Positions 8,487 through 37,211 of a stretch of 64,000 nt of DNA are shown in pieces. The DNA is from Candidatus Acidiferrales bacterium. Its GTDB lineage: Bacteria; Acidobacteriota; Terriglobia; Acidiferrales; UBA7541. The notes below the pieces were generated by a model. That model had not been told where the DNA came from, searched no databases, and saw nothing but the letters and a program-made list of their open reading frames with translations. The position numbers and the translations under genes are program-made. The DNA lies in contig DATEKA010000141.1 in the NCBI GenBank assembly GCA_035277685.1, forward strand, positions 2,280-66,279. Reading direction: 5' to 3'. How positions within the stretch are numbered: position 1 is the stretch's first letter; every line of letters starts with the position of its first letter.

Positions 8487-8684
8487 GACTACTCCCTCCA
8501 GCCGACCTTATAGAGCGCCTCTACAGACGGCTTCTAGTCGCAAATGGTTGCGAGTAGAAATCGCGCTAACCTCATGAAAACAAAAGCTCCACGAATTTCT
8601 AGCCGCCAAAAGATCCGTGAATTTACCTTCGCTTTTTCTTCGCAAATTCCTGCATTTAGTGAACTTGACACCCGGCTCAACTCG

Positions 8685-9014
8685 TTACGCGCGCTGCAAA
8701 ATCAGAGCGACGGCTGACGACAGGCGCTCCCATTCGGCTTGCTCCTTTTCGAGTTGTTCACGCCCGGCTTTTGTCAGCGAATAGTATTTCGCGCGCCGGT
8801 TGTTCTCCGAAGCGCCCCACTCGGCCTGGATCAGTCCTTTTCTCTCAAGCCGGTATAAAGCCGGGTAAAGAGAGCCTTGCTGCACCTGAAGGACTTCTTT
8901 CGAGACCTGCTGAATGCGCTGGGCGATGCCCCAACCGTGCATCGGCTCAAGCGCGACGGTCTTCAAAATGAGCAGGTCCAGCGTTCCCTGCAAAATTTCA
9001 GCGGATGGCGGCAT
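8685..9014 (-). CDS. PadR-family transcriptional regulator
   Basis: 109 aa with [25 protein letters not shown]...[20 protein letters not shown]...[16 protein letters not shown], the canonical PadR winged helix. It lies directly upstream of the ADOP permeases on the same strand. Confidence 0.92.
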
Positions 9015-18320: not shown

Positions 18321-18507
18321 GAGGAACTCCTTTTGGAAGATTTCGAGTGCTTGAAGACACATGATAGCACGCGCTATGCGCAGTTCGCGGCGACGGCGTA
18401 ACTCGAAAATATCACTTACCTGGAAAAGCTTGACAGGAGCCGCCGACATCTGCGTTATATAATATCGTTCGTTACCGAGATTGATCGCGAGGAAGGAGAT
18501 CACGCAC

Positions 18508-18735
18508 GTGCCCCGTTGTCCTGAATGCGACGCCGAAATCGACTTGGACGAAGATGAAGTGGAAGAAGGCGAAATCCTGAGCTGTCCCGAGTGCGATTCC
18601 GAGCTTGAAGTCACGCAGACCCATCCCGTGCACCTGATTCTCCTCTCCGACGAAGACGAGGAGGAAGACGAGGAAGAGGGAGACGGAGAGGAGTCGAAGG
18701 TGGAAGAAGAAGAGGAGGAGGAGGAAGAAGAGTGA
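18508..18735 (+). CDS. LysW-like zinc-ribbon protein with an unusually long poly-acidic tail
   Basis: VPRCPECDAEIDLDEDEVEEGEILSCPECDSELEV has the CPxC...CPxC ribbon and ELEV as in the amino-group carrier LysW. It is followed by about 35 residues that are almost all D/E and end in E10. GTG 18508 has GGAAGGAG 9 nt upstream, and the track start is TTG 18481. Confidence 0.6.
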   Translation: MPRCPECDAEIDLDEDEVEEGEILSCPECDSELEVTQTHPVHLILLSDEDEEEDEEEGDGEESKVEEEEEEEEEE

Positions 18736-20491: not shown

Positions 20492-22918
20492 ATGGAAACA
20501 TCTTCTGCTCTCTTTGAACTAGCAACTGTGTCGCTGGCCTGCCGCGACAGGGATACCTTTCTAAAAAACTTCAGCACACGCATAGGAGGGGAGCTTGGGG
20601 CGAAGGCCGTCCTGGTGTGGACGGTGAATCCGGCGGCGGAAGAAATCGAGTTCGTCTGCGGGATTTCGTGGGCGCACCCGGGCGAACATTTCACGCCGAG
20701 CGAGGAACGGGTTCGCGACGGACTCCTCTCGGAGGCGTGCGCTTCAACGGGAGCGCGGCGAATTACCCCCGGAGACTTCGCCAACGACGATTTTTCGCAC
20801 CTGGATGAGACGAGTCGCGGGCACGTGCGCAGCGGGCTGTATGCACAGATTCCGGGTGTCGGCGGTCCGGAAGGCGTCATCGAGGTACTGAACAAGCGGA
20901 GCGGCGAGTTCACAGCGGAGGACGGCCGTTTTCTCGAGGAAGCGGCGCGTATAGCCGGCCAGGTGCTTACGAACCTTGCCGGAATCGAAAGCGAGAGGCA
21001 ATCGAACTTCGCGGCGCTCGAGCGGCTTACGTCTCTCTACGACCTGGGGCGAACGTTCACCTCGACGCTCGAACTGGAAGAACTGCTCCCAATCGTTGCC
21101 GGGAAAATAAGAGACATTTTGGGAGCGGGCGCGTGCAACCTCTGGCTCGCGGACGCAGGGGAACTTCGTTTCGCGCAACAGGCCGGCGAAGATCCCAGCG
21201 TCGAAGAGGGGGCAACGGCTCCGCTGGAGGAAGACCTTTTCGGGGAGCTGATGCGGCAGGGCGTTCCTAAACTGATCGAGGACGCCACTGAGGAGGCACA
21301 ACTCGAGAAAAGACGGAGGGCAGCAGCGGATCTGGAGATTGCGACGTGGATGGCAGCCCCGCTGCGAAAGGATGACGAAATCCTTGGAGTGGTGGAGGTC
21401 ATCAACAAGGCCGATGGAGGACGGTTCAACGACGAGGACCTGTTCTTTCTTACGAGCATCAGCGAGCAGGCAGCGACGGCGCTGCACAACGCGAAGCTAC
21501 TCGAGTCCGAGCGGAAGCTGCATACGCTGGATGCGCTGCTGAAGATTTCGCAGGAAATTACGTCAACGCTGGATCTGGATCACGTGCTGACAACGGTGGT
21601 TCAACAAGCTGGATCGATTATCCCGTTCGATCGATGCGTCATCGGGTTCTTCGACCGCGGGCGATTCGTGCTGGGCGCCGTTTCGGGCGAAGAGGAAGTG
21701 CCCAAAACACGCGAGATGCAGGAGCTGCGGGAGCGGCTGGAGTGGGCGGCCGAAGAGCAAGAGAACGTCTGGGCGGACCGGTACGAAGACGGATGGCATG
21801 TGGGACAGGAGGCGACAAACGCGCAATTCGTTCCCTTCCTGGAAGCCCATGAGTACAACGGGCTCTATATTCTGCCGTTGCGAGACGAACAAGGCACGCT
21901 GGGAGCGATGTCGCTGCTGAGCGGGGACGCGGATTTCCTTACGGCGAGCAACAAAGAAACTCTCGCGATCCTGGCAAACCAGACGACAGTCGCGATACGG
22001 AACGCGCAACTATACCAGCAGGTTCCGCTGGCGAATCTGTTGCAACCCCTGGCCCAACGAAAGCAGCGATTGCTGGCGGCGGTGCCCCAGGGACGTTGGC
22101 GGACGTACGCAGAGCGAATCGCTGCCGTCGCTGCGATCTTGTTTGTGATTCCGTGGCCGTTGCGCGTCGGTACGGACGCGACTGTTGTGCCCGCGCAGAG
22201 GCGCGTTGTCAGCTCGATTCAGGGAGGAATCGTCAGGCAGGTGTTTGTACGCGAAGGCGAAAGTGTTCGCGAGGGGCAGGTACTGGCGCAACTGGACGCG
22301 AGCGATGATCGCGTGAAATTGGCGCGAGCGGAAGCCGCTCTGGCACAAACCGAGCGTGCGCTGTCGGACGCGGAGTTTCACAACGACCCGGCGGCAGCGA
22401 GCGATGCCAAGATCCAGAGCGACGTTCACCGAGCCGAGGTGGCGTTCGAGAACCAGCGCATCGAGGAAGCGCAGTTGCGCTCTCCAATAGCGGGCACTAT
22501 CGTGACCCCGAAAGTGGAAGAGAAGGCCGGAACGATGCTCCAGCCGGGCGGAAGTTTCTGCGAAGTAGTGGCACAGGATGAGATGGCGGCGGAAATGAGC
22601 GTCCCGGAAACGGACCTGCCGCTGCTGAAGCCGGGAAATCACGTGTCCTTGAAGCTGAACGCGTATCCGGAAACGACATTCGAGGGTGTGGTCGAGCGAA
22701 TTGGGGCTCAAACAAAATCGGATAGTGGAGAACAGTATTTTCTGGTTCGCGCCATTTTCAGAAATACCGGGGATCGCGCGCGCGATGGAATGGCTGGGAG
22801 AGCGCGCGTACGCGCAGGGGGCGGATGGTTTCGGAGTCAGTGGCACCCGATCGGCTATGTAATTCTACGCGCGCCGTTCCGGTGGATTTGGGAAAAAGCC
22901 TGGTCCTGGTTGCCTTAG
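20492..22918 (+). CDS. Triple-GAF / single-TM / HlyD-type membrane-fusion (periplasmic adaptor) fusion protein
   Basis: 808 aa. It has three GAF-like blocks (e.g. GVIEVLNKRSGEFTAEDGRFLEEAA, GVVEVINKADGGRFNDEDLFFLTSISEQAA, LGAMSLLSGDADFLTASNKETLAILANQ). A TM helix (IAAVAAILFVIPWPL) follows. Then comes a barrel-sandwich/lipoyl motif (VREGESVREGQVLAQLD), a short coiled coil and a beta-barrel typical of HlyD. Confidence 0.8.
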   Translation: METSSALFELATVSLACRDRDTFLKNFSTRIGGELGAKAVLVWTVNPAAEEIEFVCGISWAHPGEHFTPSEERVRDGLLSEACASTGARRITPGDFANDDFSHLDETSRGHVRSGLYAQIPGVGGPEGVIEVLNKRSGEFTAEDGRFLEEAARIAGQVLTNLAGIESERQSNFAALERLTSLYDLGRTFTSTLELEELLPIVAGKIRDILGAGACNLWLADAGELRFAQQAGEDPSVEEGATAPLEEDLFGELMRQGVPKLIEDATEEAQLEKRRRAAADLEIATWMAAPLRKDDEILGVVEVINKADGGRFNDEDLFFLTSISEQAATALHNAKLLESERKLHTLDALLKISQEITSTLDLDHVLTTVVQQAGSIIPFDRCVIGFFDRGRFVLGAVSGEEEVPKTREMQELRERLEWAAEEQENVWADRYEDGWHVGQEATNAQFVPFLEAHEYNGLYILPLRDEQGTLGAMSLLSGDADFLTASNKETLAILANQTTVAIRNAQLYQQVPLANLLQPLAQRKQRLLAAVPQGRWRTYAERIAAVAAILFVIPWPLRVGTDATVVPAQRRVVSSIQGGIVRQVFVREGESVREGQVLAQLDASDDRVKLARAEAALAQTERALSDAEFHNDPAAASDAKIQSDVHRAEVAFENQRIEEAQLRSPIAGTIVTPKVEEKAGTMLQPGGSFCEVVAQDEMAAEMSVPETDLPLLKPGNHVSLKLNAYPETTFEGVVERIGAQTKSDSGEQYFLVRAIFRNTGDRARDGMAGRARVRAGGGWFRSQWHPIGYVILRAPFRWIWEKAWSWLP

Positions 22919-22926
22919 GCGAAAAC

Positions 22927-23880
22927 ATGAAAACGAAAAGCTCAATGTGGCTAATGGCGAGTGGCGTCCTTGCGCTCGCGGCTTGGGGGTGCGGTGGTTC
23001 GCCGGGAACGGTAAATGCAAACACCGCATCTTCCGCTCCCGCGGTGGCCGCTTCCGGTGCTCCGCCTGCGACGGTGGCGTCCGCCGATGCGAGAGTTCCA
23101 GGCGCGGGCGATATTCTCAGCGTTCTATCGGTCGAGCATCAGGTGGATCTTGCCTCGGAACGCGACGGAGTGGTCCTCTCGATCGCGAAGGACGAAGGAA
23201 GCGCGGTGAAGGCGGGGGACGTTCTGGCGCAGCTCGACGACCGCGACCTGCAGATGCAACTCGTCAAGGCGCGAGATGACCTTCAGGTAGCGCAGAACAA
23301 TGTGCGATACAAAGAAGCCGAATTAAAAGCGAAGAATGCCGCTTACAAGCGGCAACAGGAATTGCGGCACTATGGCCTTTCAAGCGAAGCTGACCTGGAG
23401 CAAGCGCAGTTCGAGGCCAAAGGCGCGGAATACGATGTGCACGGCTGGGAGGCCCTTGTTGAGAGTAGCCAGGCGGAGATCCGGAGAATTCAACTTGGAA
23501 TCGACCAGATGCGTATACATGCGCCGTTCTCGGGGGTAGTGGTGAGTCGCTTCATCCGGGAAGGCGAAGCGCTGAAGAAAGGCGACCGATGCTTCCGCGT
23601 GAGTCAGCTAGGTCCGCTGCAGGTGCGCTTTCAGATTCCGGAGTCGTCTCCGGTGCGCCCGGAACGCGGAGCGGCTGTGAGGCTTTCGCTGGTGAGCGAC
23701 GCGAACCACTCACTCAAAGCGAAAATTGTCAAAATCAGCCCGACCGTTGATCCCGCCAGCGACAGCTACGACGTGGTGGCGCAGCTCGAGCGGGCGCAGC
23801 ATTCGAGCTTGCTCCCGGGGATGGCGGTTCGCGTCCATTGGCCGGGAACAGGGGTAACGAGCGAAAGGAACAGGCCGTAA
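22927..23880 (+). CDS. HlyD-family periplasmic adaptor lipoprotein
   Basis: ATG 22927 gives MKTKSSMWLMASGVLALAAWGCGG (lipobox). It shows DEGSAVKAGDVLAQLDDRDLQ, a coiled-coil hairpin, and IHAPFSGVVVSRFIREGEALKKGD. Confidence 0.85.
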   Translation: MKTKSSMWLMASGVLALAAWGCGGSPGTVNANTASSAPAVAASGAPPATVASADARVPGAGDILSVLSVEHQVDLASERDGVVLSIAKDEGSAVKAGDVLAQLDDRDLQMQLVKARDDLQVAQNNVRYKEAELKAKNAAYKRQQELRHYGLSSEADLEQAQFEAKGAEYDVHGWEALVESSQAEIRRIQLGIDQMRIHAPFSGVVVSRFIREGEALKKGDRCFRVSQLGPLQVRFQIPESSPVRPERGAAVRLSLVSDANHSLKAKIVKISPTVDPASDSYDVVAQLERAQHSSLLPGMAVRVHWPGTGVTSERNRP

Positions 23881-23890
23881 CGGGAATCGC

Positions 23891-26035
23891 ATGCGGTTTG
23901 GGGCGACAAGGCTTCAGATTTCGAGCGTGCTGGCGAAGGGCCTGCGGCGGCCGAAATTGCGTTCCGATCTGCGAATCAGCGAGCAGACGGTGGCAGGTGA
24001 GAAAAGCTATGTCATCAAGGTTGCGGAGACCAATTCATATAACCGATATGGGGAAACGGAATACGAGCTGCTCACATTGTGCGACGGGACGCGCACAGCG
24101 GCAGAAGTTGGCGAAGAGCTGAACCGGCGACATCCGGACGAGCCGCTACCCGAATCCGAGGTGCTCGATTTTCTGGACGGCATCGAGCCCGCCATGTGGG
24201 AGCGAAGCGTCGGCGAGAAGAACCTCGCCGTGCTGGAGCGTATCCGCGATGAACGAAAGGGGCGCCTCGATCAATCAAGCGCTCTCTATATAAGTTTCAA
24301 GGCCTGGGACCCCGACAAGTTTCTGTCCCGAATCGACCCCTACCTGAGCTGGATTTTCACTCCAGGATTTGTGGCCGCTTCCTGCCTGTTGTTCATTGTG
24401 TGCGGGTACCTGCTCGCGGGTGATTGGACCAGGGTGGCGAACGACACCAGGGCCCTCTACTCGTTCCAAAACAAGACCGCGTATGACATTTGGGTCTTCT
24501 GGCTGATTCTGCTTGTGGTCGGGGGAATTCATGAGTGCGGGCACGGATTGACTTGCAAGCACTTTGGCGGCGACGTCCACCAGATGGGCTTCATGCTGAT
24601 TTATTTCACGCCGGCATTTTTCACGGACACGACCGATATCGTCTTGTTCCAGGAGGGCAGCCGCCGGCAGTGGGTAATCTTCGCGGGAATCTGGATCGAA
24701 CTGACGGTGTGCGCGATTTCGACGCTGATCTGGCATTTCACGCTTGCGGGATCGCCGATCAATGACCTGGCATACAAAGCGATGCTCCTCAGCGGAATAC
24801 AGGGGGCGCTGCTCAACCTGAATCCTTTGATCAAGGCAGACGGCTATTATGCGCTGGCGCAATTTCTGGACATAGACAACCTGCGCGAGGACTCGTTCAC
24901 ATTTTTGCGCGCTCTCGCCCGGAAGTACGCGCTGCGTGAGGACATTGACTTGCCAAAGGCCAGCCGGCGGCTGCGCCGCATCTACGTAATTTTCGGGCTC
25001 GCCGCAATCACCTACAGCACAACGCTGATTCTGCTGGTGCTGGGATTTGTGAAGAACATATTCGTCGAGAAATTCGGGGACTGGGGATACGTCCTTACGC
25101 TGGCTGTCGCCTACTTCTTCGCGCGGAAGGGGTTGAAGAAGGCGTTCCCTGCCATTCGCGCCTGGTGGCGAGAGAAGAGGGAGGTGTACATGGCGTGGAA
25201 AATGACGCGCGCACAGCAGATTGGGGCTCTGGCGATCGGATTCCTATTGGTGGTACCGCCGTTTCCGTCGCGCGTGTCCTCGGACTTCATTCTTGAACCC
25301 GGAAGCGACGCGCACGTTCGAGCGGCAGTGCCCGGGCGCGTGGACCGGGTCTTCGTGCATGAAGGAGATCATGTGGCGGCGGGCCAACTGCTTGCGATCC
25401 TGGAGAATCCAGACATCACAAAGAGTGAGCGAGTGCTCAGCCAAGAACTTGCGCTGGCGAGCGGCCTGGTCCGAACCGGCCAGCAAAGCCCGGAAAAGAA
25501 GAGTCCCGCCGGGGCAATTCGGGAGCGTAAGCGCCTCCAAGAGGAGTTCGCGGTGGCCCAGCAAAGGGCAGGCGAATTGGAGATTCGCGCACCGCATGAG
25601 GGAGTTGTTACAACACCCAACGTTGACCGAAAGGCGGGTGAGTTCTTGAGTGCGGGGGGCGAGTTCTGCCGCATCGTTGACCGCAACACGATGAAGGCCC
25701 GCATCCTGGTGCGCGATTGGGAGTTGGACAGGATACATGCCGGGGCCGGGGTTCAAATGAAGGTCGCGGCGTTTCCTTTCCACACATACTCGGGCACGGT
25801 AGAGCAGATCCTACCGGCTGCGGCTAACGACGAACCCGTCTCTCACCCTCAGCGCCAGGAGCGGCTCGGGCAGGAACTGAGCAACTATTTTGGCGTCGTG
25901 GTGGATTTCATGAATCCGGACGGATCCCTTCGCGAGGGAATGACGGGAATCGCGAAAGTTTACTGCGGAAGGTCGCCGTTGGCGTGGAAAGCCGTCCGGG
26001 GCGCGTGGAGATGGATGCGATCTCAAGTTTGGTGA
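23891..26035 (+). CDS. PqqD-like (RRE-like) domain / M50 site-2-type zinc metalloprotease / HlyD-domain fusion protein
   Basis: 714 aa. The N-terminal 100 aa (PKLRSDLRISEQTVAGEKSYVIKVAETNSYNRYGETEYELLTLCDGTRTAAEVGEELNRRH...VLDFLDGIE) fits the PqqD pattern. The polytopic core carries HECGHGLTCKHFGG (HExxH). The C-terminus is an HlyD module (VHEGDHVAAGQLLAILENPD, IRAPHEGVVTTP). Confidence 0.8.
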   Translation: MRFGATRLQISSVLAKGLRRPKLRSDLRISEQTVAGEKSYVIKVAETNSYNRYGETEYELLTLCDGTRTAAEVGEELNRRHPDEPLPESEVLDFLDGIEPAMWERSVGEKNLAVLERIRDERKGRLDQSSALYISFKAWDPDKFLSRIDPYLSWIFTPGFVAASCLLFIVCGYLLAGDWTRVANDTRALYSFQNKTAYDIWVFWLILLVVGGIHECGHGLTCKHFGGDVHQMGFMLIYFTPAFFTDTTDIVLFQEGSRRQWVIFAGIWIELTVCAISTLIWHFTLAGSPINDLAYKAMLLSGIQGALLNLNPLIKADGYYALAQFLDIDNLREDSFTFLRALARKYALREDIDLPKASRRLRRIYVIFGLAAITYSTTLILLVLGFVKNIFVEKFGDWGYVLTLAVAYFFARKGLKKAFPAIRAWWREKREVYMAWKMTRAQQIGALAIGFLLVVPPFPSRVSSDFILEPGSDAHVRAAVPGRVDRVFVHEGDHVAAGQLLAILENPDITKSERVLSQELALASGLVRTGQQSPEKKSPAGAIRERKRLQEEFAVAQQRAGELEIRAPHEGVVTTPNVDRKAGEFLSAGGEFCRIVDRNTMKARILVRDWELDRIHAGAGVQMKVAAFPFHTYSGTVEQILPAAANDEPVSHPQRQERLGQELSNYFGVVVDFMNPDGSLREGMTGIAKVYCGRSPLAWKAVRGAWRWMRSQVW

Positions 26036-26054
26036 AGTAGCTCGACTGGGGATC

Positions 26055-26089
26055 AAAAAAAGAGGTCGCCGCGGTGGAACGGCGACCTC
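26055..26089 (-). terminator. Rho-independent terminator closing the minus-strand micro-ORF cluster
   Basis: There is a perfect 9-bp stem GAGGTCGCC/GGCGACCTC (26062-26070 / 26081-26089) with a 10-nt loop. On the minus strand it is followed by T7 (26061-26055). On the plus strand no T-run follows. Confidence 0.65.
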
Positions 26090-26186
26090 GGGGTGGGTGG
26101 TTCCTTTGTAAATATCCTCAGAAGACCGTAGAAGACCTTCCGAGGAAAATCAGGGTACGGTCTCCGCTCGGGCGCCGCTAAGCTGC

Positions 26187-26300
26187 TCAGGGCACGCGGC
26201 GAAGCATTTGAACCGTGAGCGGTTGCTTCTTTTCGAGCTTCTTTCCGGCTTTCAACTTCCTTGCCGGTTTGACGGGTTTTGATTTGGCTTTCATGCTCAT
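26187..26300 (-). CDS. Lys-rich micro-protein P1 (37 aa), paralogue of P2/P3
   Basis: My translation is MSMKAKSKPVKPARKLKAGKKLEKKQPLTVQMLRRVP*. It shares the GKKLEKKQ core with P2/P3. GAGAGA lies upstream, and the second ATG at 26294 is an alternative start. It is below the 60-aa cutoff, so it is absent from the track. Confidence 0.5.
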   Translation of the reverse strand: MSMKAKSKPVKPARKLKAGKKLEKKQPLTVQMLRRVP

Positions 26301-26468
26301 CTCTCTGCAAACGGCCCCAAGGCCCACGGCGAAAACCCGTGGACCTCGCCTCATCATCGCACAGCTCTGAGGGCAACAAAACCTCAGAGCTTACAGTTTC
26401 CGCCGCTATTAGGCCAAGCGGCAGAGGGTACAAGCCGCGAAGGGGTCCCTAGGGACCCTCCGGCAGCT

Positions 26469-26582
26469 TCAGTTGAACGGAGTCACTTTCGGGGCCCACT
26501 TGCTCTGCAGGGTCTGCTTCTTTTCGAGCTTCTTGCCCGAGGCCAGCTTCTTTCCCGACTTCACTGCTTTGCTCTTCGTCAT
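26469..26582 (-). CDS. Lys-rich micro-protein P2 (37 aa)
   Basis: My translation is MTKSKAVKSGKKLASGKKLEKKQTLQSKWAPKVTPFN*. The SD GAGGGAG lies 6 nt upstream. The listed ORF 26449..26631 is in a different frame. Confidence 0.55.
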   Translation of the reverse strand: MTKSKAVKSGKKLASGKKLEKKQTLQSKWAPKVTPFN

Positions 26583-26725
26583 TTTCGTCTCCCTCGCTTG
26601 GATTGTCGCGCCCTGGGGCGCGGTCAGTCATGACGTCGGTTATAAGTCCGATTCGGGCGGAACGTCGGGCCCGGACCAGGCCCGCTGCGGAATGTAGGGC
26701 AGCGAGCGCTCAAAAAAACAAAGGC

Positions 26726-26830
26726 CTAATTGAAGGTCATCAACGGCGTCTTGCTCTGCAGGGTCTGCTTCTTTTCAAGCTTCTTGCCAGCCGCCTTCCC
26801 GGACTTGATTGCCTTCGCTTTGCTTGCCAT
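26726..26830 (-). CDS. Lys-rich micro-protein P3 (34 aa)
   Basis: My translation is MASKAKAIKSGKAAGKKLEKKQTLQSKTPLMTFN*. It forms the C-terminal part of track ORF 26726..26968. The SD GAGGGG lies 7 nt upstream. A sigma-54-type promoter sits about 75 nt upstream. Confidence 0.6.
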   Translation of the reverse strand: MASKAKAIKSGKAAGKKLEKKQTLQSKTPLMTFN

Positions 26831-26904
26831 TTCGTTGCCCCTCGCGTTTGATGTCGCGCTTGAGAAGCGCGCCAGAGTAGCCTTTGCGGCTCTGCGGGTG
26901 TAAG

Positions 26905-26920
26905 TGCAATCGGGGAGCCA
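26905..26920 (-). promoter_or_regulatory. Candidate sigma-54 (-24/-12) promoter
   Basis: The minus strand reads TGGCTC-CCCGA-TTGCA against the consensus TGGCAC-N5-TTGCW. The GG-N10-GC spacing is exact. It lies about 75 nt upstream of the P3 ATG and about 140 nt downstream of the bEBP stop codon. Confidence 0.6.
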
Positions 26921-26971
26921 AACGAACAGTGTGCGCAGGGAAGGCCCGCTCCGTTGAGGCGAAAGCACTTA

Positions 26972-27012
26972 GCGCACGTCCCCTGTGCCACGACGAAGAA
27001 GCGGCGCACGTC
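26972..27012 (-). promoter_or_regulatory. Candidate enhancer (UAS): direct repeat GCGCACGTC x2
   Basis: The identical 9-mer GCGCACGTC (plus-strand reading) occurs at 26972-26980 and 27004-27012, 32 bp apart (about 3 helical turns). This is 55-95 bp upstream of the -24 element. An AT-rich tract follows at 27018-27055. Confidence 0.35.
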
Positions 27013-27057
27013 ACACGTTGAGTTTTTTATCGAGAATATTTAATTTTTCAACGCCTG

Positions 27058-28410
27058 CTACAGGCCGTGCTTCCGGCAAAGATAGTTCAGGCGGTTGCGA
27101 TCGATTCCGAGCAAGCGTGCGGCTTCGGTCTTCGTCTGTTTGGTCTGCAGGAGGGCTTCCTGGAGCCAGCGTTTCTCGAAATTCTCCAGTTCCTTATCCA
27201 GATCGATTCCGCCGGGAGGCAGCCGAAAGTGGCTTCGGGAATCGCGTGCATCGGCCTCGACGATTTCTCCCGGCAGATCTTTCAGGGCGATGTGCTCGCC
27301 ATCGGTCATGATGACCATTCTTTGAACAGCGTTCTCAAGCTCACGAACGTTCCCTGGCCATGTGTAATTTTTCAACGCTTGCATGGCATCGTCGCCGATG
27401 CGCTTGAGCGCCAAGCCGTTCGCGGCGCAATAAACGCTTACGAAATACTCCACCAGCAGGGGGATGTCGTCCACCCGGTCACGTAAGGCGGGAACGAAGA
27501 TGGGGACAACGTGAATGCGGTAGTAGAGGTCTTCGCGGAAGTGCCCGTCCCTCGTCATCTGCTCCAGATCCTCGTTTGTCGCGCTGATCAGGCGGAAATC
27601 AACTTTGATCTGCCTTTTACCGCCCAGCCGCGTGAGGGACCGCTCTTCGAGAACACGGAGCAGTTTGCTTTGCAAGGCGGGAGTGAGGGTGGCGATTTCG
27701 TCGAGGAAGAGTGTTCCAGTGTGGGCCAGTTCGATCCGCCCTTCCTTCATGGCAACGGCGCCGGTGAAGGCTCCCTTTTCATAGCCGAATAGCTCGGCTT
27801 CCATCAAACCTTCCGGCAGGGCGGCACAGTTCACACTGATAAAAGGACGGACCCGGCGAGGCCCCTGATCGTGCAGCGCGCGGGCGACGAGTTCTTTGCC
27901 AACGCCGCTTTCGCCGCGAATGATGACATTGGTCGTGGCGCGAGCCATGCGTTTGACCGAATCGAAAACATGGCGCATCGAATCCGTGGCGCCGATCAGA
28001 TCACCGAGGGCATGTTTGCGGCTGATCTCGTCGCGCAGGATGCGATTTTCGCGCTGGATGCGCAGCTTTTCGATGGCGCGTTCGAGAAGGTGACGCAGAA
28101 CGTCGGTATCGATGGGCTTGATAAAGTAATCGTACGAGCCGGCGTCGATGACTTTCAGGGCGCTGGATTTCCTGTCGTCAGAACTGAGGACGATGACCAG
28201 TGTGTCGATTTCGCTCCCTTGAAGGCGAGAAAGCAGCTCGGTGCACTCCTTGACGCCGCCAGAAGCGATGGGCAGGCCCAATAGAAGGACATCGAGCTCC
28301 GATTCCTGCAGGAGTTTATAGGCGGCGTTGTAGTCGTCGCCCTCGAGGATTTCGAAATCTGCTTTGAGGGCAGAACAGACCTTGGACCGCAGGTCCGCGT
28401 CGTCGTCCAC
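27058..28410 (-). CDS. Sigma-54-dependent transcriptional activator (NtrC-family bEBP) with a degenerate receiver domain
   Basis: The AAA+ core has GESGVGKE, GAFTGA (EKGAFTGA) and a Fis-type HTH (EAARLLGIDRNRLNYLCRKHGL). In the receiver, the phospho-acceptor position reads LDVLLLGLPIA, with Gly where Asp is expected. The annotated GTG start truncates beta-1, so the real start may be ATC 28446 (see findings). Confidence 0.85.
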   Translation of the reverse strand: MDDDADLRSKVCSALKADFEILEGDDYNAAYKLLQESELDVLLLGLPIASGGVKECTELLSRLQGSEIDTLVIVLSSDDRKSSALKVIDAGSYDYFIKPIDTDVLRHLLERAIEKLRIQRENRILRDEISRKHALGDLIGATDSMRHVFDSVKRMARATTNVIIRGESGVGKELVARALHDQGPRRVRPFISVNCAALPEGLMEAELFGYEKGAFTGAVAMKEGRIELAHTGTLFLDEIATLTPALQSKLLRVLEERSLTRLGGKRQIKVDFRLISATNEDLEQMTRDGHFREDLYYRIHVVPIFVPALRDRVDDIPLLVEYFVSVYCAANGLALKRIGDDAMQALKNYTWPGNVRELENAVQRMVIMTDGEHIALKDLPGEIVEADARDSRSHFRLPPGGIDLDKELENFEKRWLQEALLQTKQTKTEAARLLGIDRNRLNYLCRKHGL

Positions 28411-28662
28411 AATAGCAATCCTGGGATTCGAAGAGCCGGCGCCGATGGGTGACCTCCGGCAAGGGACACGCTGGATTCGTTCAAGCGATGGAGTGCCCCA
28501 AAGCTGCGGGGATTCTAGGTGCGCGTCCGGGAAGTGTCAACGGCGCTCGCGCCTGAGCGCATCAAGGGACAAATCGGAGCTGGCACTTGATTGAGAAGAA
28601 CAATTCGGCTAGCTTTTGAGCGGCGATTGATCGAATCTGTCCTGGTTTGCGCCGGAGCGCAT

Positions 28663-28998
28663 GTGAACATCGGAATCCGTAAAGCGGGTCGCGCTACGAT
28701 TCTCGATTTGAACGGCGCGTTGAAGCTCGGAGAGGCCGAAGAGGCGTTCCGGAGTCAAATCCAACAACTTGTCGATGCCGGAACGCCGCAGGTGGCGATC
28801 AACATGTCTGGAGTGACGGATCTGGACAGTTCTGGAATTGGCGCTCTTGTGCGTTCGTTTACGCTGCTGAAGAAATCCGGCGGCAAGTGCATCGTTTTCG
28901 CCCCGAACAAGCGCGTCCTGATGCTGCTCAAGATGGTGCGGCTGGACGCTGTGCTGTCCATCGTGGAAGATGAAGCGACTGCGCTGACTCGGATCTAG
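28663..28998 (+). CDS. STAS-domain anti-sigma-factor antagonist (SpoIIAA/RsbV-like)
   Basis: Shows ILDLNGALKLGEAEEAFRSQIQQLV...INMSGVTDLDSSGIGALV...GGKCIVFAPNKRVLMLLKMVRLDAVL, with the conserved DSSG serine present. GTG 28663 has GGAG 5 nt upstream, and the track ORF begins at 28591. Confidence 0.8.
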   Translation: MNIGIRKAGRATILDLNGALKLGEAEEAFRSQIQQLVDAGTPQVAINMSGVTDLDSSGIGALVRSFTLLKKSGGKCIVFAPNKRVLMLLKMVRLDAVLSIVEDEATALTRI

Positions 28999-29058: not shown

Positions 29059-31110
29059 TCATTCGGCTGCGAGCGTGCGAGTATTCTCGAGCTTTTCGGC
29101 CGGTCTATAGGCCGTTCCTGGCAACGTGACGACAACCCTTGTTCCCTTCCCGTCGGCGGAAATGAGCTCCATCTGTCCATGAAGTTGCACCACGCGCTCA
29201 CGAATACCTTGCAGGCCAACGCCCGGCGCCGGCCGCGCGGAATCCGAAGCGGGAGAATTGACAGGAATTCCAACGCCCTGATCGCATACCTCAAGCTGGA
29301 GGTCGCCGCTTGCGAGGCGGGATAAACGAACGCTGGCGGTGCTGCTCGCGGCGTGCCGATGAACATTCGTCAAGCATTCCTGGACAACGCGGAAGAGAGC
29401 GGTTTCGACATCCGTGGGAAGGCGGCCGATGGAGGGAGCTATGTCGACGTTGACGGCAATATTACTGCGTTTGGCGAAACCCTCCGCATACCAGACCACA
29501 GCCGACTCGAGACCGACTTCATCGAGCAGGGGAGGATGCAGGAGATGGGAAATCGTGCGAGTTTCGCTGATGGCAGTTTCGATCTGTTTGGTGGCATCCG
29601 CGAGGCGTTCCGTCACTTGAAAGTCGCCGGAGAGAGTCATGCTCAACAAGTCCAGACTCATTTTGGCGGCCACCAGATACTGGCCGAGACCGTCGTGAAG
29701 TTCCCGAGCGATCCTACGTCGCTCGTCATCCTGGCTCTGCATAAGGCGTCCAGACAGCCTGCGCAGCCGATCTTCTGCAACGCGTAGCTCGGAGGTTCGA
29801 GCGAAGACGCGAGTCTCAAGATCGTCGTGGGCGCGTTTGAGATCTTCCTCGGCGCGCTTCGTGCGTGTGATGTCGATGTTCAGACCGAAGATGCGGGCCA
29901 GCTTGCCAGTCGAATCGCGGTGGACACGGCCTCGGCTGTTGATCCAGCGAATTTCTCCGCTATCGATTCTCCGGATGCGAAATTCGATATCAAACGCGGG
30001 CCCTTCGGGCGGCAGACCGATAACTTCCGCCCCTTTGCGGTCCTCGGGCAGGACAAGATCGATCCAAGCCTGATAGGTTTTCGGGAATGTTCCGGGAACG
30101 AACCCGTATATCTGTTCAAGCTCCTCCGACCAAAAGTTGACTCCCGTCACGGCATTAAAATCGAATGCGCCGCAACGAGCGACTTTCTGAGCGAGGACCA
30201 GGCGCTCCTTCGTTTCCTCGAGGGCGCGGCGTATTTCGCGCTGCTCGTGGATATTGGTGCGCGCGCCGAACCAATGCTTGATGGCTCCGTTCGCATCGTG
30301 GATCGGCGTCACCTGGGTGAGAAACCAGCGGTAGACGCCATCAGCACCGCGCAGGCGGAATTCCATTTCGAAGGGACGTCCGGCCGCGATCGAAGCATCC
30401 CAAGCTTCGAAGACAACGCTTCTGTTTTCTGGAGCGACGTGGGACTTCCAGGTGGAACCGTTCGTCTCTTCCTTGGTGAGGCCAGTGTATTCATACCAGC
30501 GGTCGCTGTACCAGAGTATGGAGCCGGCGGGATCGGCCATCCACGTGAGTTGCGGGATCGAGTTGGCGAGGGTGCGGAACTGGGTCTCGCTCTGCTGCAA
30601 TTCGAGCGTACGTTCGCGGACACGCGATTCCAGTTCGAGATTCAGGCGCTCGAGCTGGCGGCTGGCGCGGTGCAAGTCGATGAAGACGCTAACGCGAGCG
30701 CGGAGGAGCTCGGGATTCACGGGCACGGAGATGTAGTCAACGGCGCCGCGTTCGTAACCCTTGACGCGATCGAGATCGGTCAAATGAATGGCGGAGATGA
30801 AAATAATGGCGGTACGCTGAAAGCGGGGATGGTCGCGGATCAGGCGGGCGGTCTCGAAGCCATCCATTTCGGGCATGCTGACGTCGAGCAGAATCACCGC
30901 GACATCGCTTAATTTCAGAAGTTTTTCGAGAGCCTCTCGACCCGACGTAGCCTGGATCAGATTCTCGTCCAGCTCTTCGAGCATGGCTTCGTAAGTGATG
31001 AGTTTCGAGGGCTGATCGTCAACGAGCAAGATGTTCATCTTTTGCTTTTGCGATGAATCCGTTCCCACTAGAACATCTTTGAAAACATTCCCGGTTTCAA
31101 TCATCGGCAT
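29059..31110 (-). CDS. REC-PAS-PAS-HisKA_3/HATPase sensor histidine kinase (NarX/LiaS-type DHp)
   Basis: It has an N-terminal receiver (ILLVDDQPS...ILLDVSMPEMDG...K), two PAS-like blocks and an H-box RRRIARELHDGLGQ (HisKA_3). The ATPase domain follows. Its ATG lies 1 nt after the upstream TGA (TGAcATG). Confidence 0.85.
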   Translation of the reverse strand: MPMIETGNVFKDVLVGTDSSQKQKMNILLVDDQPSKLITYEAMLEELDENLIQATSGREALEKLLKLSDVAVILLDVSMPEMDGFETARLIRDHPRFQRTAIIFISAIHLTDLDRVKGYERGAVDYISVPVNPELLRARVSVFIDLHRASRQLERLNLELESRVRERTLELQQSETQFRTLANSIPQLTWMADPAGSILWYSDRWYEYTGLTKEETNGSTWKSHVAPENRSVVFEAWDASIAAGRPFEMEFRLRGADGVYRWFLTQVTPIHDANGAIKHWFGARTNIHEQREIRRALEETKERLVLAQKVARCGAFDFNAVTGVNFWSEELEQIYGFVPGTFPKTYQAWIDLVLPEDRKGAEVIGLPPEGPAFDIEFRIRRIDSGEIRWINSRGRVHRDSTGKLARIFGLNIDITRTKRAEEDLKRAHDDLETRVFARTSELRVAEDRLRRLSGRLMQSQDDERRRIARELHDGLGQYLVAAKMSLDLLSMTLSGDFQVTERLADATKQIETAISETRTISHLLHPPLLDEVGLESAVVWYAEGFAKRSNIAVNVDIAPSIGRLPTDVETALFRVVQECLTNVHRHAASSTASVRLSRLASGDLQLEVCDQGVGIPVNSPASDSARPAPGVGLQGIRERVVQLHGQMELISADGKGTRVVVTLPGTAYRPAEKLENTRTLAAE

Positions 31111-31111
31111 G

Positions 31112-34100
31112 TCACCTGTGCAGCCACATGCGCAAGACGGCGAGCAATTGTTCCGTGTTCACCGGCTTGGCCAGATATTCCGACGCACCCGCTTCGAGGC
31201 ACTTCTCGCGGTCGCCTTTCATCGCCTTGGCGGTCAGAGCGATGATAGGCAATCGGCGAAAGAGGCGATTCTGCCGAATGACCTGCATCGTCTCGTAGCC
31301 ATCCATCTGGGGCATCATGATGTCCATCAGAACGATTGCGATCTCCGGAGTTTGCTCGAGAGTTTCAACGGCTTCGCGCCCCGTCCCCGCGGTGAGGATC
31401 TCCATCCCGCGACGCTCAAGAACGCTGCTCAAAGCGAAAATATTCCGCACGTCGTCATCCACGATCAGGACTTTTCGTCCGACCAGGGCTTCGTCGGAAC
31501 CATGCAGGCGATCCAGCATCTTGCGCTTCTCCGGAGGCAGGTCCGCCATCACCCGGTGAAGGAACAGGGCCGTTTCGTCGAGCAAGCGCTCGGGCGACTC
31601 AACGCCCTTTACGACGACGCTTCGCGCAAGCGAGCGAATCCGGGCGTCCTCCTCGGGAGATAATTCTCTTCCCGTGAAAACAACAACGGGTAAATCGTTG
31701 AGGGCGGGGGTCTCGCGAAGCCGTTCAAGAACATCAAAACCGGACATATCCGGCAAGCTCAGATCGAGCACCACGCAATCGAAGCGATCTTTGCGCAGAG
31801 TATTCAGCGCTTCTTCTCCGGTTGATACGGCGGAGATGACGATGTCGTCGTGAGCCAGCAATTCCCGCACGCTGAATTGCTCGGCTGGATTGTCTTCGAC
31901 GATGAGAAGGTGCTTCTGCCGTGAAGCGGAATAGTCTTTGAGGCACTTTAGCGCGGCATCCAGTCCCTCTTTCGTGGCTGGCTTAGTCATGAAAGAGAAG
32001 GCGCCGCACGCCAGGCCATGTTGGCGATCTTCGTCGAGAGTCAGCACTTGTACGGGAATGTGTCGAGTGGCAGGGTCCTGTTTCAAATGATTCAAGATGG
32101 TCCAGCCGAGCATATCGGGCAGAAAAACGTCGAGAGAAACAGCGCTTGGGCGGAACTTGGCGGCAAATGCAAGGGCGTCCGCGCCACGCTGGGCGACTAC
32201 GGCCCTGAACCCTTTATCGCGAGCGAGATCGCGGAGAACGCGGGCATAGTGAGGGTCATCCTCGACGATCAGCAAGACCGAATCGGCAGGCTGCAAGTTG
32301 TCGCGGTCATCGTCTATCGACTCCCCGGCGCTGTTCTGCCCGGCGCTAGCGAGTTCCACCGGATGAACGGAAACAGAAACGGAACTGCTCTTTTCGGGAA
32401 TCGTAATCGCGGGGCCAACGTATCGCTGAGGCAGATAGAGCGTGAAGGTGCTGCCCTTGCCGGGAGCGCTGAACAACTGAATCTCGCCTCCGAGCAGATT
32501 CGCGAGCTCCCGGCTGATGGCCAAGCCGAGACCCGTCCCGCCGTACTTGCGGCTCGTACCGGCGTCAGCTTGCTGGAAAGCCTCGAAGATGCTGCGTTGC
32601 TTATCGAAGGGGATGCCGATGCCGGTATCCGCAACAGCGAAGGCAATGACCGACGGCGAACCGTTCAGGATGGAATGATCGTTGCTCCAACCGCTCTCCG
32701 CGGCCGAGACCGACAGGCGCACGCCTCCTTTTTCCGTGAATTTAAAAGCGTTGGACAGCAAGTTCTTCAGCACCTGCTGCAGCCGCTTCGAATCTGTGAT
32801 CAGGCTGCGCGAAAGGCGCGGTTGGGCTGATACCTCGAAAGAGAGTTTTTTGCTCTCTGCTTCGTGCCGGAAAGGACGCGCGACAGCCTCGAGCAAGCTT
32901 GCGAGGGAAACATTTTCGGCTTCGACCGAAACCGTGCCGGACTCGATTTTGGACAGATCGAGAATATCGCTGATCAGGTTCAGAAGGTCGGTGCCTGCAG
33001 CGTGAATGGTCCTGGCGAATTCGACCTGCTTGGGAGAGAGGCGGCCGTCGGGATTCTCGCTGAGTTGTTGCCCGAGTACAAGAATGCTGTTCAGCGGCGT
33101 CCGTAGTTCGTGGGACATGTTGGCCAGGAATTCGGACTTGTACTTGGAGGTCAGCGCGAGTTCCTTGGCTTTTTCCTCCAAAGCGCGACGAGCCTGCTCA
33201 ATTTCCTGGTTCTTGCGCTCGACTTCCACGTTCTGCTCGGCAAGCTGGTGTGCCTTCAGCGCCAACTCATCGTTCGTCTGTTGCAACTCCTTCTGCTGGG
33301 CTTGAAGTTCGGCGGCCAACTGCTGCGATTGCTTCAGCAGACCTTCCGTTTGCATCGTGGCCTCGATACTGTTGAGCACGATTCCAATGCTGTCGGTCAA
33401 CTGCTCGAGGAAGGCCAGGTGGGGCGCGGTGAAGTTGCTCAGAGACGCGAGCTCGATCACCGCCTTCAGGCGGCCTTCGAAAACGACGGGGAGTACGATG
33501 ACGCTGCGCGGCACAGCCTGAAACAGGCCGGAGCGGATCGGAGCAGTGTTTGAGGGAAGATCTGTAATCAGCATTCGCCGTTTTTCTACCCCGCATTGTC
33601 CGATCAGGCCCTCGCCGAGATACAGATGAGGCGGGTGCCCGTCTTCAGCGGTCTCTGCGAAACTGGAGAGCAGAGACAAGCCCCCGAGGTCGCCGGAATC
33701 CATCCGGTACATGACGGCCTGCTGCGCGTTGACCAGCGACGCAAGCTCGGAAAGGAGCATCCGGGCAACTTCCGCCAGATCGCGGCGGCCCTGTAGCATG
33801 CCGGTGAAACGAGCGAGATTCGTTTTCAGCCAGTCCTGTTCGGTGTTGCGTTCGGTGGTAAGGCGAAGGTTTCCGATCATCGTGTTGATGTTGTCTTTCA
33901 ATTCAGCGACTTCCCCGCGCGCTTCCACCTGAATCGAGCGCGTCAGATCGCCTTTGGTAACAGCGGTAGCGACCTCCGCAATAGCGCGGACCTGATTGGT
34001 CAAGTTATCGGCAAGAAGGTTGACGTTCCCTGTGAGATCTTTCCACGTACCAGCGGCTCCGGGAACATTCGCCTGGCCTCCGAGACGGCCCTCGACGCCG

Positions 34101-36862: not shown

Positions 36863-37211
36863 CGCATTCTCTCTCCTCGACAACATGAAGATTCGACTCG
36901 GTCCGCAAAGAAGCGCCTTTGCGGCAGGCGGAGATCAGCGGCTCGCAGACGACCGAAAATACGTGAAGGTAGGGGCGCTTGGCCCGCCTGACTCCCGTAC
37001 GTCCGCTGGCCGATAATTCACAGGGAAATACTTTCCTAGCGGGCGACAGCACAATCGGCTTGAATAGCACAATCAGCTGGCGAAGACTCTACAGGGTTAC
37101 CTGTATTTGCTCCGATGGAGTTACCTGATCGAATTCTTACGATACAGCCCGAAATGGAATCCAACGGGTCGGCAATCGCTGGACAAATAGCAATCCTGAG
37201 CTAAGGTCAGG

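Follow-up and report, generated by a model that had tools for sequence, protein, structure and literature searches.

We analysed a stretch of 64,000 nt from Candidatus Acidiferrales bacterium (assembly GCA_035277685.1, contig DATEKA010000141.1, positions 2,280-66,279 of the forward strand), referred to here as the window, and describe a module of eight genes between its positions 20492 and 28998 that sets a membrane protease beside a group of very small, lysine-rich peptides. Genes for an adaptor protein with GAF domains (GAF-HlyD), for a lipoprotein adaptor and for a protease-adaptor fusion protein follow one another on the plus strand. On the minus strand lie the genes for three peptides, P3, P2 and P1, and for a bacterial enhancer-binding protein (bEBP), and the last gene, again on the plus strand, encodes a STAS-domain protein. 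An earlier note, made from the sequence alone, had proposed that the peptides are under sigma-54 control and are processed or handled by the protease. To place the module in context, we sampled 80 related loci of about 22 kb each, taking one genome per species and starting from orthologues of the fusion protein with 62-85% identity, so that the protease is present in this sample by construction. Nearly all of these loci (L009-L088; the others cited below are numbered likewise) are labelled Acidobacteriota, mostly Candidatus Acidiferrales.

The fusion protein (23891-26035, plus strand) has 714 residues and comprises an N-terminal PqqD-like RiPP recognition element (RRE), an M50 metalloprotease and a C-terminal periplasmic adaptor of the HlyD type. 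The earlier note had described it as a membrane protease carrying a PqqD-like domain and an HlyD module beside two more HlyD proteins; we recovered all of these domains, and both of the other HlyD genes precede the fusion gene. Residues 32-416 match the NCBIfam family daptide_HExxH (NF041824) with an E-value of 5e-55, across profile positions 10-370 of 379. The score of 187.1 bits falls below the family cutoff of 300 bits, so we regard the protein as a homologue, and not a member, of the daptide protease family. Its match to the YydH/LiaK family (NF058609) also remains under the cutoff (E 7e-12, 45.5 bits against 225).

The RRE comprises residues ~25-100 (23963-24190, plus strand). For the window protein alone its match to NCBIfam PqqD, over residues 55-103, is weak (E 2.6e-4); among 66 diverse members of the family, 14 match Pfam PqqD, the best with an E-value of 7.5e-7. 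An AlphaFold2 model computed from 13 close orthologues was unreliable, with a pLDDT of 58.7, and we used one computed from a 71-sequence alignment that included relatives of 25-35% identity, which reached 84.6. In this model, three strands (residues 28-34, 37-44 and 49-54) are followed by three helices (55-63, 70-80 and 88-96), with pLDDT values of 81-89, and the predicted β3-α3 order of residues 28-96 is the topology of an RRE. A Foldseek search with the whole model returned only adaptor proteins in its top 50, so neither the RRE nor the M50 fold could be confirmed by that route, and a profile search of the PDB by sequence likewise yielded adaptors only.

The M50 catalytic core spans residues 214-318 (24530-24844, plus strand) and contains the two zinc-binding motifs of a site-2 protease, the HExxH motif as HECGH at residues 214-218 and the second motif as NPLIKADG at 311-318. 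Across the 71 aligned sequences, which share 25-85% identity, residues H214, E215, H218, P312, D317 and G318 are invariant and N311 is kept in at least 90%. Pfam Peptidase_M50 matches 63 of the 66 family members; the window protein alone scores 19.9, below the gathering threshold of 27.2. The protein has at least five strongly hydrophobic transmembrane segments, and an odd number of membrane crossings would leave the RRE on the cytoplasmic and the adaptor on the periplasmic side. The adaptor domain, with lipoyl, α-hairpin and β-barrel parts, is encoded at 25280-25978. In the model, residues 464-700 fold like MacA and MexA: the Foldseek matches include MacA (9qgy_G, E 6e-15), MexA and AcrA, and the PDB profile search found a MacA-MexA chimeric protein (4dk1, E 3e-16). 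By the NCBIfam family RND_mfp the fusion protein scores 72 bits, below the cutoff of 94.9 bits.

The reading frame of the fusion protein ends at 26035, and the last peptide gene, running towards it, has its stop at 26187; the earlier note had put three paralogous tiny cationic peptides about 150 bp past the protease, and the gap measures 151 nt. From the promoter-proximal end, the minus-strand genes encode P1 (MASKAKAIKSGKAAGKKLEKKQTLQSKTPLMTFN; 26726-26830), P2 (MTKSKAVKSGKKLASGKKLEKKQTLQSKWAPKVTPFN; 26469-26582) and P3 (MSMKAKSKPVKPARKLKAGKKLEKKQPLTVQMLRRVP; 26187-26300). The peptides are 34-37 residues long and lysine-rich, carry a net charge of +8 to +12, share an invariant GKKLEKKQ and have no hydrophobic or transmembrane segment. 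They end in N, N and P, respectively, and contain no GG motif. No Pfam or NCBIfam family matched them. Searching metagenomes and genomes with a profile built from the three yielded 84 small proteins, several of which often share one contig, with the consensus M-x-x-KSKPVKSGKKLASGKKLEKKQTL followed by a short tail; the HMM E-values of P1, P2 and P3 are 8.7e-13, 4.2e-14 and 3.5e-16. P1 has a near-identical homologue (P0002) and P3 one of 98% identity (P0001), and orthologues with the tail type of P3 ('...MLRRVP') occur in L009, L010 and L078.

Three short tandem paralogues beside a bEBP and behind a sigma-54 promoter, with hairpin-like sequence after each unit, might be taken for small RNAs, since in the LuxO/Qrr layout small RNAs lie beside a bEBP under sigma-54 control. 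The sequences of the repeated units speak for peptides. Within KKLEKK, leucine is encoded by five synonymous codons and glutamate and lysine by two each, and the entropy of third codon positions is 1.29, as against 0.87 for first and 0.82 for second positions. Shine-Dalgarno sequences precede nearly every peptide ORF in the loci, in the window as GAGGGG for P1 and GAGGGAG for P2. Because invariant residues are written with varying synonymous codons and ribosome-binding sites are nearly universal, we conclude that the ORFs are protein-coding. Shine-Dalgarno sites at the correct spacing and the lack of any Rfam match in the peptide region led us, with the codon-position analysis, to reject small RNAs of the Qrr kind as hardly tenable; in addition, only the first unit has a promoter, and the subfamilies diverge in DNA yet keep their peptide motifs. 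Neither P2 nor P3 has a promoter of its own and a strong intrinsic terminator follows P3 (26062-26089, minus strand; 11-bp stem, T7 tail), and hence a single sigma-54 operon encodes all three peptides. This terminator is the only one in the 151-nt spacer (26036-26186) and, with its T-run on the minus strand, faces the peptide operon; the protease operon has no obvious terminator of its own, and its transcription could continue antisense into the peptide genes.

Within the order Acidiferrales, the peptides resolve into five subfamilies, typified in order by KSKPVKSGKKLASGKKLEKKQTL with a tail, MKPTAKPVKKGKTLGAKKLEKKVPL with a tail, MEKKSKPVKGKKTAPVKPLMKRADLPAVKPLIKF, MAKAKTVKKGKKLGSVKPL with a tail, and MADKPKPIKQGEKKAGIQKP with further sequence. 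The earlier note had seen in P1-P3 the layout of a recognition sequence with a variable tail, and this holds in part. In the window's subfamily, the tails fall into recurring types (...MLRRVP, ...PLMTF, ...LRQF and ...TVR) that keep a conserved gene order, which argues that the tail does not vary freely. The MEKKSKPVKGKKTAPVKPLMKRADLPAVKPLIKF subfamily is conserved from end to end and is accompanied by peptides of the MAKKTLKKSKKLEATKPL type that have their own promoters.

The promoter of the peptide operon (TGGCTCCCCGATTGCA; 26905-26920, minus strand) is of the sigma-54 (-24/-12) type with one mismatch to the consensus, and starts 90 nt ahead of the P1 ATG. In most loci, TGGCGC-N5-(G)ATTGCA is found 61-92 nt ahead of the first peptide ORF, and the downstream paralogues usually have no promoter. 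The density of this pattern is tenfold higher in the interval between protease and bEBP (0.89 per kb) than elsewhere in the loci (0.091 per kb). A second promoter-like site in the window, at 61976-61991 on the plus strand, lies inside a histidine-kinase gene and was dismissed as a chance match. Some 100-135 nt upstream of the peptide promoters we found an inverted repeat, GTTGAA-N3-5-TTCAAC, often in two copies. The palindrome was matched 61 times in the 80 loci, 38 of these within 200 nt upstream of a peptide promoter, and its half-site (ATTCAAC/GTTGAAT) occurs in 82 of 119 promoter-upstream regions with a peak at -100 to -135. The repeat is probably the binding site of the activator. The putative site in the window (27017-27052), some 100-130 nt upstream of the promoter, is a variant, GTTGAA(AAATT) ... 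(AAAAAA)CTCAAC, in which an A/T-rich spacer splits the half-sites; the same form occurs in L009, L010, L013 and L014.

The bEBP gene (27058-28410, minus strand) adjoins this site and encodes 450 residues, with a pseudo-receiver domain, an AAA+ domain (Pfam Sigma54_activat, E 2.4e-68) whose GAFTGA loop is intact and conserved, and a DNA-binding HTH_8 domain. The parts of a sigma-54 regulon are thus all in place: a -24/-12 promoter, an AAA+ activator with GAFTGA and a DNA-binding domain, and an upstream site. The receiver departs from that of an NtrC-type response regulator. It retains the DD pocket and mostly also the Ser/Thr and Lys residues; at the position aligned to NtrC D54, all 75 of the sequences compared have a gap (LDVLL--LGLP). 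Since the phospho-acceptor is missing throughout, the input of the activator is not canonical phosphorylation, and the STAS protein, GAF-HlyD and the peptides themselves are candidates for it. Sigma-54 control of the peptides through an atypical bEBP, as the earlier note had it, is accordingly backed by a promoter conserved at fixed spacing and by a conserved upstream palindrome. A search with PADLOC matched only the generic bEBP, and a defence-system reading was rejected.

The protease operon opens with the gene of GAF-HlyD (20492-22918, plus strand; 808 residues), which combines three GAF domains (Pfam GAF_2, E 3.8e-33), a single transmembrane segment at residues 543-561 and a periplasmic adaptor domain (HlyD_D23, E 1.5e-17; RND_mfp, 99 bits against a cutoff of 94.9). 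The lipoprotein adaptor that follows (22927-23880, plus strand; 317 residues) matches RND_mfp with 149 bits (E 1.4e-43) and has a signal peptide with the lipobox LAAWGC. Together with the fusion protein, the module encodes three periplasmic adaptors of the kind used in tripartite efflux and type I secretion. Upstream of 20492 we found a TTGACC-17-TAGGCT element; sigma-54 control of this operon is unsupported, as the promoter pattern occurs in just 2 of 72 upstream regions. The STAS gene that the earlier note had placed next door, in divergent orientation, lies at 28591-28998 on the plus strand; its product is a single SpoIIAA-like domain (Pfam STAS, E 4.6e-16) with the motif DSSG. No RsbW/SpoIIAB-like kinase or PP2C phosphatase is part of the conserved module. 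In one distant locus (L211), a HATPase gene follows that of the bEBP.

So many signalling parts in one module, namely three GAF domains, a STAS protein with DSSG and a bEBP without the phospho-acceptor in 75 of 75 sequences, raise an alternative in which the peptides are not substrates. They could instead be ligands or regulators that gate the M50 protease via the RRE, the GAF domains or the STAS protein, the protease itself acting on some other substrate, for example a membrane-bound regulator that feeds back on the bEBP, in what would be an envelope-signalling circuit with feedback by the peptides. M50 proteases such as RseP and SpoIVFB are classically agents of regulated intramembrane proteolysis of signalling proteins, which counts in favour of this alternative, as do the absence of a linked transporter or outer-membrane factor and the near invariance, across the 80 species, of the protease's first 20 residues and its RRE region. 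We nevertheless think it unlikely, in part because no alternative substrate candidate is conserved in the module; the other reasons come from distant loci, described below.

Whether peptides and protease belong together was assessed across the 80 loci. The iterated peptide HMM detected one to four peptide ORFs in 70 of them; all of the hits lie on the opposite strand, ~100-1,250 nt beyond the stop of the protease, and the remainder of the 22-kb loci gave no hit. A sigma-54 promoter together with a small basic ORF was present in the interval between protease and bEBP in 77 loci. In the three exceptions, the contig ends before any promoter although peptide ORFs are present (L011), or the interval measures only 250 and 55 nt (L025 and L058). 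The earlier note had made its proposal depend on synteny across related genomes, and with 77 of 80 loci positive its genomic part survived. Retention was similarly high for the rest of the module, at 77 of 80 for GAF-HlyD, 79 for the lipoprotein adaptor, 74 for the bEBP (75-90% identity) and 65 for the STAS protein. In L005, L013, L014 and L049 the peptides adjoin the protease with no bEBP in the locus, which shows the link between the two to be independent of the activator.

Such figures could in principle reflect nothing more than gene order inherited within one Acidobacteriota order, given that all 80 loci belong to that order and their proteases are 62-85% identical. Some background synteny does exist: pst genes and phoU persist nearby in ~45-50 of the 80 loci by loose single-linkage clustering. 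That level is well below the retention of the module genes (65-80 of 80), and the genes that flank the module in the window (coaE, folD, a lipid kinase and histidine kinases) recur in only 2 of 80. The STAS gene moved within the module yet stayed attached: it usually stands divergent from GAF-HlyD, and in the window and its two closest relatives, L009 and L010, it stands beside the bEBP. An ABC ATPase cluster that appeared conserved in 52 loci proved to be an artefact of single-linkage clustering, in which unrelated transporters had been merged. Four loci of the sample (L025, on DATKEV010000146, L046, L072 and L074) carry modules 64-68% identical in metagenome-assembled genomes labelled Udaeobacter, Cybelea, Dormiibacterota or Verrucomicrobiia; because they resemble the Acidobacteriota loci, they are probably mis-binned contigs rather than transfers.

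Relatives of the fusion protein are far more widespread than this sample. An exhaustive search gave 2,620 representative clusters (50% identity) at E ≤ 1e-30, and outside the Acidiferrales clade, where identity falls to 24-35%, the alignment still spans residues ~20-714. We sampled seven distant contexts (L209-L215). L214, at 58% identity, has the full module with two identical 29-residue peptides. In L213 (33%), genes for a STAS protein, a GAF-adaptor, an adaptor and the fusion protein are met by a convergent ORF (6171-6464, minus strand) behind a sigma-54-like promoter, which encodes a leader and (SKGLSV)x12, and a bEBP gene comes next; no homologues of this repeat ORF could be retrieved. 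L211 (32%) has two convergent ORFs (4537-4977 and 5256-5693, both minus strand) with leaders and (ADTSIES)x13, along with a (DTSVEAA)n variant, and then the bEBP, while in L215 (32%) a convergent ORF (3611-3706, minus strand) ends in (KAPFGGGAEEAR)n. L210 (~35%), whose M50-HlyD homologue is low in GC, contains four identical convergent tandem ORFs of 31 residues (MAKKSTKKVVKLNVERLEKRIAPTRAAIAMG; 8260-8738, minus strand), all of which have a GGAGG-like ribosome-binding site; a sigma-54 promoter is not evident in this locus, and TTGACA-17-TATGGT lies ~230 nt upstream. A convergent ORF of 63 residues stands at the contig end in L212 (34%). In L209 (24%) there is no obvious partner ORF, and a TolC-like (OEP) gene lies beside the GAF-adaptor.

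At 32-35% identity, the partner ORFs are unrelated in sequence to the peptides of the window and their repeats are acidic or neutral, from which it follows that basic charge is not a conserved feature of the partnership. The repeat ORFs of L213, L211 and L215 look like multi-unit precursors, and the tandem hexapeptide SGKKLA-SGKKLE of the window may be a two-unit version of such repeats. The recurrence of a convergent, lineage-specific, small or repetitive ORF is what would be expected for the substrates of a conserved processing machine. It also speaks against mere inheritance of gene order, which we consider very improbable, since the layout returns at 32-58% identity in unrelated contexts and with different peptides; the distant loci largely refute that explanation. 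For the peptides as ligands or regulators of the protease, the distant partners are awkward as well, in that (SKGLSV)x12 and (ADTSIES)n resemble precursors and not regulators, and the occurrence of paralogues and of identical tandem copies better fits the dosage of a product.

The peptide genes are not confined to the neighbourhood of the protease. Scanning metagenome contigs with a DNA pattern for GKKLEKKQ gave 120 stretches, 28 of them with true family members. Fifteen of the 28 are in module context (11 with a convergent protease and 4 with the activator upstream and a truncated flank), and two were uninformative. Others are satellites with no protease in the available flank, as in L003 (9740-10114, plus strand), L007 (9843-10247, plus strand), L090, L097, L163, L168, L173 and L184; those of L003 and L007 are flanked by Ser/Thr kinase or MacB-like genes on one side and by OsmC/FabH on the other. 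Several satellites carry a TGGCGC-N5-TTGCA promoter and GTTGAA-N3-TTCAAC ~130 nt upstream. One contig of 3.1 Mb contains both a satellite and the module protease gene, and the same protease is found in a full module in L216 and L217. As satellites share promoter and upstream site with the module and coexist with it, the peptides form a small regulon with its main locus at the module.

We found no post-translational modification enzyme in 20492-28998 and no SET-domain homologue in the 64-kb window, and the locus has no radical-SAM gene. The earlier note's statement that tailoring genes are absent therefore stands for the window; it does not extend to the relatives, for 26 of the 80 loci have a SET-domain gene (Pfam E 1e-19) among the peptide genes and on the same strand, sometimes in two copies. 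Loci with such a gene include L001 (9116-9601, plus strand), where it follows a peptide of 30 residues (MAKKALKKGKKLTKTTTMKLAGIKKIPAIQ), L217 (6717-7205, minus strand) and L028 (12777-13484, minus strand). Their placement suggests that in some species lysines of the peptides are methylated. Other enzymes are rarer in the interval between protease and bEBP: an ATP-grasp-like gene in six loci (weak GSP_synth or CP_ATPgrasp_2 matches; for example L053, 12952-14352, minus strand) and a class I SAM methyltransferase in seven (for example L072, 12643-13497, plus strand). In L005, a UbiE-type methyltransferase gene stands directly upstream of the peptides.

SET genes lying amid the peptide genes of 26 of the 80 loci, satellites that lie far from any protease under the same promoter and upstream site, and a charge of +8 to +12 with no hydrophobic segment are all consistent with a further possibility: that the peptides stay inside the cell as basic stress peptides that bind polyanions (DNA, RNA, ribosomes or polyphosphate), methylated by the SET enzyme where it is present, and are co-regulated with the module without being handled by it. 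Known prokaryotic SET enzymes do methylate basic chromatin proteins. Such a role would not account for the tight convergent position in 77 of 80 loci, kept where the bEBP is locally absent, nor for the acidic or neutral repeats of the distant partner ORFs, and it would leave the RRE domain with no obvious client. We judge it to be rather improbable.

The system most similar to the module is that of the daptides, whose proteases have an RRE fused N-terminally to a site-2 protease and whose class was found through the co-occurrence of an RRE-peptidase with short precursor ORFs (daptide paper). Like the fusion protein of the window, DapP/MpaP has an N-terminal RRE and an M50 metalloprotease and stands beside several short ORFs with a conserved N-terminal region. 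The differences are substantial. Daptide proteases lack the C-terminal periplasmic adaptor; the window has none of MpaB, MpaC, MpaD and MpaM (a DUF-RRE protein, an oxidative decarboxylase, an aminotransferase and a methyltransferase); P1-P3 have no ELExMEAP leader, aliphatic core or invariant C-terminal Thr; and the host is a Gram-negative acidobacterium in which peptide expression is sigma-54 dependent. Measured against RRE-dependent RiPP clusters in general, the locus has the adjacent short precursor genes and the PqqD-like RRE and lacks the modification enzyme.

M50 proteases that process ribosomal peptides include EpeP, TglG and TmoG, and EpeP is thought both to cleave and to export. In the epipeptide system (YydFGHIJ/EpeXEPAB), a small ribosomal peptide is likewise matured by a membrane M50 protease, YydH/EpeP; unlike that system, the locus has neither a radical-SAM epimerase nor an ABC exporter, and it has three adaptors and a sigma-54 circuit. 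In colicin V secretion by CvaAB-TolC, and for class II microcins, removal of the leader is coupled to passage through the envelope via a membrane-fusion protein, and the precursors are small and unmodified. The module differs from these in having a zinc M50 protease in place of a C39 cysteine peptidase, recognition presumably by an RRE in place of a double-glycine leader, no ABC ATPase, and an adaptor fused directly to the protease. Maturation of pheromones by Eep or RseP-type enzymes (Firmicutes SHP/XIP and the enterococcal sex pheromones, with export by PptAB) also has an M50 protease free a short C-terminal signalling peptide, from small precursors with a positively charged N-terminus. Those precursors are hydrophobic and membrane-inserted. 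Eep itself has no RRE and no adaptor domain, the Rgg/PrgX-type receptor is separate, as is the exporter, and sigma-54 exerts no control. Finally, the C-terminal 250 residues of the fusion protein fold like MacA, MexA and AcrA (Foldseek E 1e-12 to 6e-15), but no inner-membrane pump partner is encoded with the adaptors, of which one shares its polypeptide with a protease and another with three cytoplasmic GAF domains. We found no description of an M50-adaptor fusion, of these peptides or of the module in the searchable literature; the TMcin preprint concerns a different site-2 protease system.

We favour a role of the module as a self-contained unit of peptide production, in which lysine-rich peptides docked on the RRE are cut by the M50 protease and passed out via the adaptors, and we would put the probability of this reading at roughly 55%. 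In such a scheme, a sigma-70-type promoter would drive the GAF-sensor adaptor, the lipoprotein adaptor and the RRE-M50-adaptor fusion, and the bEBP would probably bind GTTGAA/TTCAAC and activate the sigma-54 promoter of the three-peptide operon. The cytoplasmic RRE would dock the conserved cationic N-terminal part (KPVK...GKKLEKKQ) of each peptide, the M50 site would then cut the docked peptide, and the product would exit through the three-adaptor assembly, presumably to an unlinked outer-membrane channel. In the window this product would be a short unmodified peptide, with a role as signal or antimicrobial; in one third of the related species the SET enzyme would probably methylate lysines first. 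Genes, promoter, upstream site, domains, intact catalytic motifs and conserved linkage are established by the analysis; we infer the steps of RRE binding, cleavage and export as well as the identity and role of the product.

Several observations weigh against this scheme. The peptides are hydrophilic and have no transmembrane segment, whereas the classical substrates of M50 proteases are membrane helices. They show no recognisable cleavage motif, and some tails are only 3-4 residues long (...KKQTLTVR); with such short tails and a subfamily conserved along its full length, function may reside in the peptide as a whole. Peptide and protease genes never share an operon, and 11 of the 26 informative loci of the peptide-first scan (~40%) lack a protease in a downstream flank of more than 1 kb. 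No ABC, RND or MFS transporter occurs in the module or is conserved beside it in the 80 loci, and no outer-membrane factor is linked to the conserved module; a tblastn search with a distant OEP, an insensitive one, gave no match to such a factor in the window or in the 80 loci. With neither in the conserved module, the scheme accounts for neither the source of energy nor the channel.

Taken with the distant homologues, a much broader proposal can be put forward tentatively, although we hold it to be doubtful. RRE-M50-adaptor fusions could form a large class, not yet described, of machines that mature and secrete peptides in Gram-negative bacteria, in which the protease serves as the inner-membrane part of a transporter-less assembly across the envelope and cuts adjacent precursors into short unmodified peptides; the precursors range from lysine-rich peptides of 30 residues to polyproteins with a leader and repeats such as (SKGLSV)x12. 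If true, this would amount to a bacterial analogue of prohormone processing, perhaps yielding peptide pheromones of Acidobacteriota, gated by a sigma-54 activator that senses an input other than phosphorylation.

Outside the module, two further features of the window deserve record. A gene at 18481-18735 on the plus strand encodes a LysW-like zinc-ribbon protein of 84 residues (Pfam Zn_ribbon_LysW, E 7e-13) with a long Asp/Glu tail that runs out to EEEEEEEEEE, and is followed by a gene for a CarboxypepD_reg-domain protein. At 31112-36886 on the minus strand lies the gene of a hybrid histidine kinase of 1,924 residues, in which nine or more HAMP/HAMP_2 units in tandem are combined with a GAF domain, HisKA/HATPase and three receiver domains, adjoined by that of an RR-PAS-HisKA_3 kinase (29059-31110).

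The module is built from parts of known kinds: a protease guided by an RRE, membrane-fusion proteins and a sigma-54 circuit. New are the fusion of protease and adaptor, the presence of three adaptors without a transporter, an activator with a pseudo-receiver, and unmodified lysine-rich or repeat precursors. As the module has no tailoring enzyme here, standard mining, which proceeds via tailoring enzymes, would miss it. It is conserved across an entire order of Acidobacteriota that are abundant in soil and peat, and metagenomes contain great numbers of related fusions. With promoter, upstream site, pseudo-receiver activator and catalytic residues defined, and with three peptides that can be synthesised, the hypothesis is directly testable. 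If the fusion protein both cuts and exports, it would represent a new architecture for crossing the Gram-negative envelope without an ABC, RND or MFS pump, and would give access to signalling or antimicrobial peptides in a phylum for which almost nothing is known of cell-cell communication.

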